Virus record (IMG/VR): IMGVR_UViG_2711768000_000006 | Reading direction: 5' to 3' (one strand) | Origin: a virus | Taxonomy: Duplodnaviria; Heunggongvirae; Uroviricota; Caudoviricetes | DNA: 6,540 nucleotides | Part shown: positions 941 through 6,540 of the stretch, one piece after another | How the letters are laid out: each line of letters opens with the position of its first letter | Position numbering within the stretch: the first letter of the stretch is position 1 | Notes under the pieces: model-generated | Told to the model about the DNA's origin: nothing | The model's input: only the letters and a program-made list of their open reading frames with translations | The model's database searches: none | Position numbers and translations under genes: made by a program

Positions 941-1004
941 TGCAGCGGGTGCTTGAGGCTATCTGTCTCAGGCATGAACACCAAAAGGCAGATAGAGAAA
1001 AGCC

Positions 1005-1068
1005 CCAGTTAACATTACGCGTCCGGCAAGACGCTTAACATTAATCTGAGGCTCAATCTATGAACGGC
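1005..1068 (-). ncRNA. Predicted Sok-like antisense RNA covering the mok-like translation initiation region (boundaries approximate)
   Basis: Minus-strand promoter-like elements: -35 TTGCCT (complement of 1098-1103) and -10 TAACCT (complement of 1075-1080), 17-bp spacer. The transcript would be antisense to the SD and ATG at 1047-1062. This matches the known architecture of hok/sok loci. The 3' end is not defined by a clear terminator. Confidence 0.3.
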
Positions 1069-1116
1069 AAATCTAGGTTAGCCTCTTACGTGCCGAAAGG
1101 CAAGGAGAAGCAGGCT

Positions 1117-1272
1117 ATGAAGCAGCAAAAGGCGATGTTAATCGCCCTGATCGTCATCTGTTTAACCGTCATAGTGACGGCACTGGTAACGAGGAAAGAC
1201 CTCTGCGAGGTACGAATTCGAACCGGCCAGACGGAGGTCGCTGTCTTCACAGCTTACGAACCTGAGGAGTAA
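1117..1272 (+). CDS. hok: Hok/Gef-family type I toxin, 51 aa (HokD/RelF-like)
   Basis: Translation MKQQKAMLIALIVICLTVIVTALVTRKDLCEVRIRTGQTEVAVFTAYEPEE has the Hok-family single transmembrane helix and the conserved TRKxLCE and EVAxF motifs. SD AGGAG lies 9 nt upstream. An in-frame upstream ATG at 1060 with its own SD (mok-like) gives the 70-aa ORF in the track. Confidence 0.9.
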   Translation: MKQQKAMLIALIVICLTVIVTALVTRKDLCEVRIRTGQTEVAVFTAYEPEE

Positions 1273-2908: not shown

Positions 2909-3289
2909 ATGACCGAGCGCATAGAATTTGTTTTACCTTACCCGCCGACGGTGAACACTTACTGGCGTCGTCGTGGCAGCACATATTTTGTATCAAAAGC
3001 CGGGGAGCGTTATCGCCGGGCAGTGGCGCTTATTGTTCGCCAGCAGCGGCTGAAATTAAGCCTGTCCGGAAGGTTGGCAATAAAAATTATTGCAGAACCA
3101 CCGGATAAGCGCCGCCGTGACCTGGACAATATTCTGAAAGCGCCGCTGGATGCGCTGACGCATGCGGGGTTGCTAATGGACGATGAGCAGTTTGATGAAA
3201 TCAATATCGTTCGTGCTCAGCCAGTATCTGGTGGACGTCTGGGGGTGAAGATTTATCCCATAATGCTTGAAGGGCAGGTCAAAAAATGA
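2909..3289 (+). CDS. rusA: Crossover junction endodeoxyribonuclease RusA (Holliday junction resolvase)
   Basis: 126-aa product with RusA hallmarks: N-terminal LPYPPTVNTYWRRRG, the catalytic-region motif PDKRRRDLDNILKAPLDALTHAG, and C-terminal GGRL. Lies directly upstream of the Q candidate, as in lambdoid prophages. Confidence 0.9.
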   Translation: MTERIEFVLPYPPTVNTYWRRRGSTYFVSKAGERYRRAVALIVRQQRLKLSLSGRLAIKIIAEPPDKRRRDLDNILKAPLDALTHAGLLMDDEQFDEINIVRAQPVSGGRLGVKIYPIMLEGQVKK

Positions 3290-4107
3290 AACTGGAAGAT
3301 TTACCGAAATACTACTCCCCAAAATCCCCCGGCCTGACTGATGCATCGGCCTCAACGTCGAAAGATGCGCTGAGTATCACTGATGTGATGGCCGCGCAGG
3401 GCATGACACAGAATCGGGCTGAGATGGGGGTTTCTGCGTTCCTTGGGAAAATGGGCATTAGTATGAATGACAGAGAGCGGGCAACAGAATTGCTGACAGA
3501 ATATGCACTCAGTCGGTGTGATCGCGTGGCGGCGTTAAGAAAACTCCCGGCAGAAATAAAACCGGCAGTGATGCGTATTATGGCTTCGTATGCGTTTGAA
3601 GATTATGCCCGTAGCGCGGCGAGCAAAAAACAGTGCCCCTGCTGTCACGGAAAAAAATTTATTGAAAGCGAGGTTTTTACAAACAAGATCCAGTATCCGG
3701 ATGGTAAGCCGCCGGTATGGGCAAAGTGTACGAAAGGTGTGTATCCGTCTTACTGGGAAGAATGGAAAAAAGTCAGGGAGGTGGTAAAAGTTGCCTGTCC
3801 GGAGTGTGGCGGAAAGGGTGAGGTTTCCACCGCCTGTAAGGATTGCCGTGGGCGTGGTGTCGCCATTCATCGTGAAGAGTCGGTAAAACGTGGTATGCCT
3901 GTTATCAGAGACTGCCAGCGTTGTGGTGGTCGTGGCTATGAAAGACTACCATCAACGGAGGCATTTAATGCTATATGCGAGGTGACAAACCAGATAACAC
4001 GCGCGTCATGGGAAAAAACAGTTAAGAAATTTTATGATGCGCTGGTGACCCGGTTTGATATTGAAGAAGCATGGGCTGAGCGGCAGTTAAAAAAGGTAAC
4101 TAGGTAA
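3286..4107 (+). CDS. Putative late-gene antiterminator Q with DnaJ-like zinc-finger repeats
   Basis: 273-aa ORF whose ATG overlaps the rusA stop (ATGA). Contains CPCCHGKK plus three CxxCxGxG motifs (CPECGGKG, CKDCRGRG, CQRCGGRG). Sits between rusA and a pR'-like promoter and terminator, the canonical Q position. The assignment is positional plus motif-based, not a confirmed match. Confidence 0.6.
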   Translation: MKLEDLPKYYSPKSPGLTDASASTSKDALSITDVMAAQGMTQNRAEMGVSAFLGKMGISMNDRERATELLTEYALSRCDRVAALRKLPAEIKPAVMRIMASYAFEDYARSAASKKQCPCCHGKKFIESEVFTNKIQYPDGKPPVWAKCTKGVYPSYWEEWKKVREVVKVACPECGGKGEVSTACKDCRGRGVAIHREESVKRGMPVIRDCQRCGGRGYERLPSTEAFNAICEVTNQITRASWEKTVKKFYDALVTRFDIEEAWAERQLKKVTR

Positions 4108-4140: not shown

Positions 4141-4187
4141 CGTTATAACGATGGGCGTTTTATGCCTGACGTTAGAAGAGTTTCTAC

Positions 4188-5738: not shown

Positions 5739-5778
5739 TATTGAAGAATTAATTACGCGTCGTTATTATGCGGCTCCC

Positions 5779-5854
5779 GGCCCTTTAGCTCAGTGGTGAG
5801 AGCGAGCGACTCATAATCGCCAGGTCGCTGGTTCAAATCCAGCAAGGGCCACCA
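5779..5854 (+). tRNA. tRNA-Ile2 (anticodon CAT, lysidine type), ileX/ileZ-like, with encoded CCA
   Basis: Manual cloverleaf: acceptor GGCCCTT/AAGGGCC, D-arm GCTC..GAGC, anticodon loop CTCATAA, T-arm GCTGG TTCAAAT CCAGC, discriminator A, CCA. Closely resembles E. coli ileX as recalled. By anticodon alone it could also be scored as Met. Confidence 0.8.
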
Positions 5855-5861
5855 TCACATA

Positions 5862-5938
5862 CCGCCATTAGCTCATCAGGAAAGAGCGCCAGCCTTCGAA
5901 GCTGGCTGCGCGGGGTTCAAGTCCCCGATGGCGGTCCA
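5862..5938 (+). tRNA. tRNA-Arg (anticodon TCG), with encoded CCA
   Basis: Manual cloverleaf: acceptor CCGCCAT/ATGGCGG (7 perfect pairs), D-arm GCTC..GAGC, anticodon stem CCAGC/GCTGG with loop CTTCGAA, T-arm CGGGG TTCAAGT CCCCG, discriminator T, CCA. The C1-G72 start is unusual but it folds cleanly. Confidence 0.7.
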
Positions 5939-5951
5939 TTATCTGCATCAT

Positions 5952-6009
5952 GCGTTGTTAGCTCAGCCGGACAGAGCAATTGCCTTCTAAGCAATCGGTC
6001 ACTGGTTCG
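5952..6009 (+). pseudogene. 3'-truncated tRNA-Arg (anticodon TCT), argU/argO-like; breaks in the T-loop
   Basis: Acceptor 5' strand GCGTTGT, D-arm GCTC..GAGC, anticodon stem ATTGC/GCAAT with loop CTTCTAA, and the T-stem 5' strand ACTGG followed by TTCG are intact. The expected T-stem 3' strand and acceptor 3' strand (ACAACGC) are absent and replaced by CTTTTGCGGGCCTTTTTTTT. Confidence 0.6.
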
Positions 6010-6227
6010 CTTTTGCGGGCCTTTTTTTTAAATGTCTCACAATTCAGACGGTTGACAGTTGTCTGTTTTGCGGGGAGTTTGTTAAAAGAAACTGGCATGG
6101 TGAATCCCCCTGTGCGGAGGGGCAATCAGCGAGTAGGTATATGGGATAATCGCGGATTCAGGTGCTGGTACTGAATTCACCGGGAGGCACCCGGCATCAT
6201 GCAATGGCACATAGCGCCACTCTCCAG

Positions 6228-6250
6228 CCCTCTCCGGAGGGGCTTTTCTG
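6228..6250 (+). terminator. Weak terminator-like hairpin (CCCTC / TCCG / GAGGG followed by GCTTTTCT)
   Basis: 5-bp GC-rich stem with tetraloop and a short T-rich tail, in an otherwise ORF-free region. Weak. Confidence 0.25.
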
Positions 6251-6433
6251 TGCCGGATACATCACAGTTTCTGGAACCTTAGGTACTACAGTATCAGTCA
6301 GGGTGCTATATTTTCAGATGTGATGAAAGCCTGTCAGCAGGCAGGGCGTATCGGAAATGACCCAGTAGAGAAAACGTTGACTCAGATACCGGTGCTGAGT
6401 TACCGGGAAACCGGCATCACATGACCGCTATCC

Positions 6434-6540
6434 TGAGGTGTACTGGCAATAGCGGACACTACCATTTGTTCTTTTTTTAAGCAGCCATCTGATGATATTT
6501 TTCCCTGAAGGCTGCCGGGGAGATATTCCCCAGACGAGAG
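6434..6540. repeat. Right arm of the perfect 107-bp inverted repeat (partner 1..107)
   Basis: Exact reverse complement of 1-107. Read on the minus strand it reproduces the upstream region and first 32 nt of the ORF at 76, then continues as only a 21-codon ORF (complement 6400-6465). Confidence 0.95.

Follow-up and report, generated by a model that had tools for sequence, protein, structure and literature searches.

Does a tRNA gene that stops in its T-loop mark a place where DNA of another origin was joined, or a gene that lost its end in place? We asked this of the third tRNA gene in a 6,540-nt stretch of viral DNA (Caudoviricetes; IMG/VR record IMGVR_UViG_2711768000_000006; hereafter the window). 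A first-pass annotation had described the stop and had taken it as a rearrangement junction, with the DNA to its right (6011–6433) possibly derived from elsewhere. Here, we compare the locus with related phages and chromosomes and discuss what removed the end of the gene.

The tRNA cluster and its prophage setting

The 561 bases around the break matched hundreds of Stx and other lambdoid phages, in which the tRNA genes are annotated as ileZ, argN, and argO. In the GenBank record of 933W (AF125520), from whose annotation we took the gene names and codon assignments, the order is pT, ileZ (AUA), argN (CGH), argO (annotated as "AGA; AGG?"), a possible rho-independent terminator, and stx2A. The tRNAs of the window follow the same anticodon order (CAT, TCG, and TCT) as those of Nil3, PhiR49_2, phi296, and 933W, with the third gene truncated; promoter-like and terminator-like sites are predicted at the positions annotated in 933W, and the cluster lies downstream of a Q antiterminator gene. 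Judged by these similarities, the locus is the ileZ–argN–argO tRNA cluster of 933W-type lambdoid prophages, and its third gene is argO. 933W-type prophages carry this cluster downstream of the Q antiterminator and ahead of the lysis or stx region. The third gene had been labeled argU-like in the first-pass annotation; the annotations of its relatives identify it as prophage argO, which has only the TCT anticodon in common with the argU of the host. E. coli hosts also carry this chromosomal argU. A literature search on ileZ, argN, and argO returned nothing useful.

On the plus strand, a putative sigma-70-like promoter (TTGAAG-17-TATTAT, 5741–5769; 9 of 12 matches in a consensus scan) precedes the cluster and is equivalent to pT of 933W, which is annotated at the homologous position as "pT; putative tRNA promoter", 10 nt before ileZ. 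Two tRNA genes follow on the same strand: an ileZ-type gene with a CAT anticodon (5779–5854; Rfam tRNA, 72.5 bits), annotated as a tRNA-Ile reading AUA in 933W and RefSeq and also as tRNA-Ile in the relatives, and a tRNA-Arg(TCG) gene of the argN type (5862–5938; 58.0 bits; argN in 933W). Both were called by ARAGORN and Rfam, and their encoded CCA was read directly in the sequence, which agrees with their earlier description as intact. Further upstream are genes for a DUF968 protein, RusA, a Q-type antiterminator (antitermination protein ORF, 3286–4107), and a DNA methyltransferase, a gene content that places the locus in the late-regulatory region of a lambdoid prophage.

The window and the 933W cluster share gene order and approximately 94% identity from the promoter to the break, as well as the position of the pT-like promoter, a terminator hairpin after argO, and the location downstream of the Q antiterminator. 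They differ in that the third gene of the window lacks its last 19 nt together with a 20-nt spacer, a full-length DNA methyltransferase gene lies between Q and the tRNAs, and an STnc100 region, not stx, comes after the terminator. The genes of the window use AGA, AGG, and ATA at 7.4, 4.4, and 14.8 per thousand codons, respectively, well above the average of the E. coli host; such an excess is in line with the reason commonly given for rare-codon tRNAs on phages. Among E. coli genomes, the region of the tRNA cluster occurred at a median of 2 places per genome and at up to 11.

The prophage itself is a fragment. Positions 1–107 of the window are the reverse complement of 6434–6540, and both represent the same terminus of one IS3-family element, which we take to be possibly IS600; two inverted IS copies thus bracket a 6.3-kb piece of prophage. 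This IS-bracketed, degraded context is common to four near-identical chromosomes (loci L146–L149), whereas three further loci (L008, L009, and L013) lack the right-hand IS. The genes called around the locus encode the DUF968 protein, RusA, Q, the methyltransferase, IS3-family transposases, and a SASA esterase, and no integrase was found among them.

The truncated argO and the 39-bp gap

The remnant of argO occupies 5952–6009 on the plus strand, as delimited by an Rfam model match and by alignment with intact 77-nt copies. It keeps the acceptor 5′ strand, the D arm, the anticodon arm, the variable loop, the T-stem 5′ strand, and the first four bases of the T-loop. In E-value mode, the Rfam tRNA model (RF00005) matched these 58 nt at model positions 1–58 of 71 with 25.9 bits and flagged them as 3′-truncated, which bears out the first-pass description of a tRNA-Arg(TCT) running through the T-stem 5′ strand. 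The match falls below the gathering score of 29 bits, and at that threshold only the tRNAs at 5779–5854 and 5862–5938 were found in the window. ARAGORN likewise called the two upstream tRNAs and not the third, as the first-pass annotation had anticipated. Beyond 6009, the sequence continues with CTTTTGCGGGCC (6010–6021) and a run of eight Ts (6022–6029), exactly as had been read before.

The 3′ portion of argO that is missing, AATCCAGTACAACGCGCCA, comprises 19 of the 77 nt. The T-stem and acceptor 3′ strands that it carries, reported earlier as missing, are indeed absent from the window and present in intact relatives. A search for a displaced 3′ half, which had also been suggested, returned no copy elsewhere in the window with up to three mismatches tolerated. 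The D arm and the anticodon arm (anticodon TCT) were modeled with high posterior probability and are identical to those of intact relatives. Of the T arm, ACTGG and TTCG are kept and AAT and CCAGT are deleted; the acceptor 3′ strand (ACAACGC), the discriminator G, and the CCA of the relatives are all absent. Without the 3′ strands of the T-stem and the acceptor stem, the discriminator base, or CCA, the remnant is a tRNA pseudogene; from general tRNA biology, we infer that it cannot form a cloverleaf and should be neither processed nor aminoacylated.

Comparison with Nil3, PhiR49_2, and phi296, each of which carries an intact 77-nt tRNA-Arg(TCT), showed that both flanks of the break are collinear and that exactly 39 bp are missing between them. 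The same gap, with the flanks in perfect register, was found against fourteen near-identical chromosomal loci encoding an identical methyltransferase or DUF968 protein. Of the missing 39 bp, 19 are the 3′-terminal nucleotides of the tRNA, and the other 20 are spacer that extends into the stem of the terminator. At the ends of this segment, the intact allele has an imperfect direct repeat, TCACTGGTTCG and TCCCTGGCTCG, at an offset of 39 nt. The two copies (tCACTGGTTCG and tCCCTGGCTCG) are identical at 9 of 11 positions, with the last three bases exact; the former lies in the T-arm of the tRNA, and the latter makes up the 5′ strand of the hairpin in the cluster's terminator. In the window, only TCACTGGTTCG is left, at the deletion junction (5999–6009); the 39 bases would fit in between 6006 and 6010, at a position that is ambiguous within the TCG common to both copies. 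In the 577 nt around argO, there are approximately ten distinct repeat pairs with at least 8 of 10 identical positions, the deletion repeat among them, and most of the others reflect similarity between tRNAs; for one given pair of 10-mers, the chance of such identity is about 4e-4.

Thus, one repeat copy is kept, 39 bp are gone, and direct repeats lie at both ends of the undeleted allele. A deletion between imperfect repeats would remove one copy together with everything in between, and such a loss is what slipped-strand or microhomology-mediated deletion typically leaves behind. Exact microhomology amounts to only 3 bp, and the longer repeat is imperfect; the pattern of the end product nevertheless suggests replication slippage or other microhomology-mediated illegitimate recombination as the mechanism. 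Short-direct-repeat deletions of this kind were reportedly studied in classic work on E. coli lacI and on plasmids. The present case resembles them in that one copy and the intervening sequence are gone and in that the repeats are short (3 bp exact within 9 of 11), 39 bp apart, and beside hairpin-forming sequence; it differs in that the repeat is imperfect and the mechanism is deduced from sequence. Overall, we consider it highly probable that a 39-bp deletion between short direct repeats made argO a pseudogene in an IS-bracketed prophage remnant, and that this deletion is private to the strain and probably neutral.

The right flank and the terminator

The DNA to the right of the break offers no sign of another origin. 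In Nil3, PhiR49_2, phi296, and the chromosomal relatives, an STnc100 region adjoins the argO terminator as it does in the window, and the prophage homology runs on to 6433, where the end of the IS3-family element begins. The DNA from the hairpin and the T run through STnc100 up to 6433 is the native continuation of argO. The proposal that 6011–6433 came from elsewhere is accordingly rejected by the collinearity of both flanks with these relatives, and with it the notion of a junction between DNAs of different origin, since the only difference from the relatives at this point is a clean 39-bp gap.

An intrinsic-terminator-like hairpin is predicted across the junction (6004–6029, plus strand; GGTTCGC-TTTT-GCGGGCC followed by T8), as indicated by a terminator scan, by folding, and by its homologue in 933W. 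It consists of a 7-bp stem and a 4-nt loop at 6004–6021, followed by T8 at 6022–6029. The T-stem strand GGTTCG of the truncated tRNA replaces GGCTCG as the 5′ half of the hairpin; owing to the close similarity of the two repeats, the hairpin forms again with one C-to-U change, which turns a G–C pair into G–U. The predicted fold has a free energy of −11.3 kcal/mol in the window versus −13.8 kcal/mol in the intact allele, and the 7-bp geometry is shared. Given this single change, transcription of the shortened operon would be expected to end where it did before, with no effect on the two tRNAs upstream. The motif GG[CT]TCGCTTTTGCGGGC[CT] was present within 60 nt of argO in 100 of the 137 intact copies fetched, with close variants in most of the others, and in the 933W record a possible rho-independent terminator is marked 14 nt beyond argO. 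The window therefore provides a tidy example of a deletion that takes the end of a gene yet restores the downstream terminator from the gene's own T-arm.

Some side observations concern the region beyond the terminator. STnc100 (RF02076) was matched in full length at 6066–6255 on the plus strand (123.6 bits), approximately 35 nt downstream of the cluster terminator; it ends in a terminator-like hairpin of its own (6226–6244), and a TTGACA hexamer is located at 6053–6058. The 3′ half of the cluster terminator, TCGCTTTTGCGGGCC, is similar to TCTGTTTTGCGGGGA, which lies 55 nt further downstream, at the start of the STnc100 match (8697–8711 and 8752–8766 in locus L146, corresponding to approximately 6007–6021 and 6062–6076 in the window). 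STnc100 has been related to PasD sRNAs in a 2026 preprint (doi 10.64898/2026.05.13.724894).

Distribution, origin, and fate of the deletion allele

We investigated how widely the deletion allele is distributed. Intact argO was present in 14 of 14 near-identical chromosomal loci inspected, a count to be read with the fact that the contig look-up merged places with identical neighboring proteins, so that near-identical genomes beyond those inspected could carry the deletion. One of these loci (HE616528.1) is presumably Shigella sonnei 53G, and the window therefore probably comes from a strain of S. sonnei. A 44-mer spanning the junction gave no megablast match in 5,426 complete E. coli genomes, a collection that contains no Shigella genomes, or in 50,697 phage records. 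Exact searches for a junction 29-mer (AATCGGTCACTGGTTCGCTTTTGCGGGCC) and a 22-mer found neither in species-representative genomes, IMG/VR, or JGI metagenomes, and no exact-protein record was found for two ORFs spanning the junction. As a control, the corresponding 44-mer of the intact allele matched 952 of the 5,426 E. coli genomes, at 1,320 places, and the intact allele matched at least 120 viral contigs, indicating that the junction searches work. The deletion allele is known from this window alone and, on these sequence searches, is best read as strain-private.

When all 6,540 bases of the window were compared with loci L146, L148, and L149, the only differences were the 39-bp gap and substitutions at two positions, 1314 and 4144. 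Both substituted bases are private to the window: G for T at 1314, compared with the four loci that reach this position, and T for C at 4144, compared with 12 of 12 near-identical chromosomes checked. Neither position falls within any listed ORF of at least 50 aa.

Another form of argO disruption was encountered in a search of IMG/VR for other breaks at the same base. In one contig found by this search (IMGVR_UViG_2671180283_000019, positions 90–113), argO is interrupted after GGTTCG by the end of an IS66-family (ISCro1-like) element starting with GTAAGCG. The two cases are alike in that the gene is inactivated in the T-loop and in a prophage context, but differ in that the contig carries an IS insertion, whereas the window carries a deletion without an insert. 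The IS66-family insertion is an independent inactivation of argO, unrelated to the 39-bp deletion. In addition, two complete E. coli genomes matched both halves of the 150-nt query, but as separate pieces spanning 248 and 499 bp.

The uniqueness of the junction across all collections searched also raises the question of whether the 39 bp were lost in assembly or cloning, while argO is intact in the source strain. The two additional private SNPs in a window that otherwise belongs to a very uniform genome set would fit such an artefact, and the multiple copies of the tRNA cluster per E. coli genome complicate assembly. However, a clean loss of 39 bp exactly between short direct repeats is what biological slippage leaves, and apart from this loss the flanks align without any shift. 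The usual errors of assembly are of other kinds (homopolymer indels, collapsed repeats, or chimeric joins at long repeats), and assemblers are not known to join sequences at 3-bp overlaps. We therefore regard an artefact as unlikely. Much less likely still is a scar of imprecise excision, in which a mobile element once inserted in the T-loop of argO left and took the 39 bp with it. That argO can be hit by mobile DNA is clear from the IS66-family end that follows GGTTCG in the IMG/VR contig, but the agreement in position follows from the search pattern, which demanded it. Moreover, no trace of an element or target-site duplication remains in the window, no insertion at argO was seen in the near-identical genomes inspected, and the deletion ends fit the direct repeat with no element required.

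The first-pass annotation had offered site-specific or illegitimate recombination as the cause of the break. Illegitimate recombination stands as the likely event, given the repeat-flanked 39-bp gap. Site-specific recombination does not, as nothing is inserted and no integrase was called in the neighborhood. Its appeal lies in the location of the break, because the T-loop is a preferred crossover site for tyrosine integrases that target tRNA genes, as Williams reportedly described in 2002. An event of this kind, for example one driven by such an integrase, would have joined the tRNA to DNA from elsewhere, but the right flank is the native continuation seen in phages and chromosomes that are uninterrupted here. 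An att junction would also be difficult to reconcile with the lack of a second copy of the tRNA 3′ half in the window, the lack of an integrase among the neighboring genes called, and the position of the tRNA, which lies within the late region and not at the edge of the prophage. We give this explanation next to no chance, and rejected it both as an att junction made by an integrase and as a join to foreign DNA on the right-hand side.

Deletion between the direct repeats thus being the preferred reading, the truncation of argO is ordinary decay of a defective prophage. Because the prophage is an IS-bracketed fragment, E. coli genomes usually hold several copies of the cluster, and the host has its chromosomal argU as well, the loss of argO was most likely a neutral step of decay that is confined to the source strain. 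For annotation, the locus should be corrected to a tRNA pseudogene made by a small deletion in a well-known prophage cluster, not a recombination breakpoint or integration site. At most, the 39-bp deletion could help to mark a strain or lineage within a pathogen background that is very clonal.

A more speculative consequence concerns the transcript. The 5′ two-thirds of the tRNA, with the D and anticodon arms, are now fused to a terminator hairpin and a U-tail, and the fusion should escape recognition as a tRNA precursor because it has no acceptor stem or T arm. By analogy, it could persist as a stable chimeric tRNA-derived sRNA of approximately 75–80 nt that binds Hfq by way of its terminator and U-tail and acts as a regulator or sponge, an outcome that we consider extremely improbable; if true, a single event would have turned a tRNA gene into the source of a small RNA. 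The analogue is 3′ETS-leuZ of E. coli, an external transcribed spacer RNA of a tRNA operon that Lalaouna and colleagues reportedly described in 2015. Both would be short RNAs from the stretch that follows the last functional tRNA of an operon, closed by the operon's intrinsic terminator hairpin and U-tail, although for the argO remnant transcript this is only a conceivable fate.

Elsewhere in the fragment, we observed a hok/sok type I toxin-antitoxin module, with an Rfam match to sok (947–1122, plus strand; 112.4 bits) and an ORF of the Hok/Gef family (1060–1272, plus strand), annotated as hokD in a relative. Compared with the prophage of E. coli TUM10008, the closest complete one, the window lacks approximately 1.8 kb at approximately 1362–1592. 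In TUM10008, this segment lies between hok and the DUF968 gene and contains a hypothetical gene and an HTH/Peptidase_M78 gene; the difference is mosaic variation of the nin-like region.
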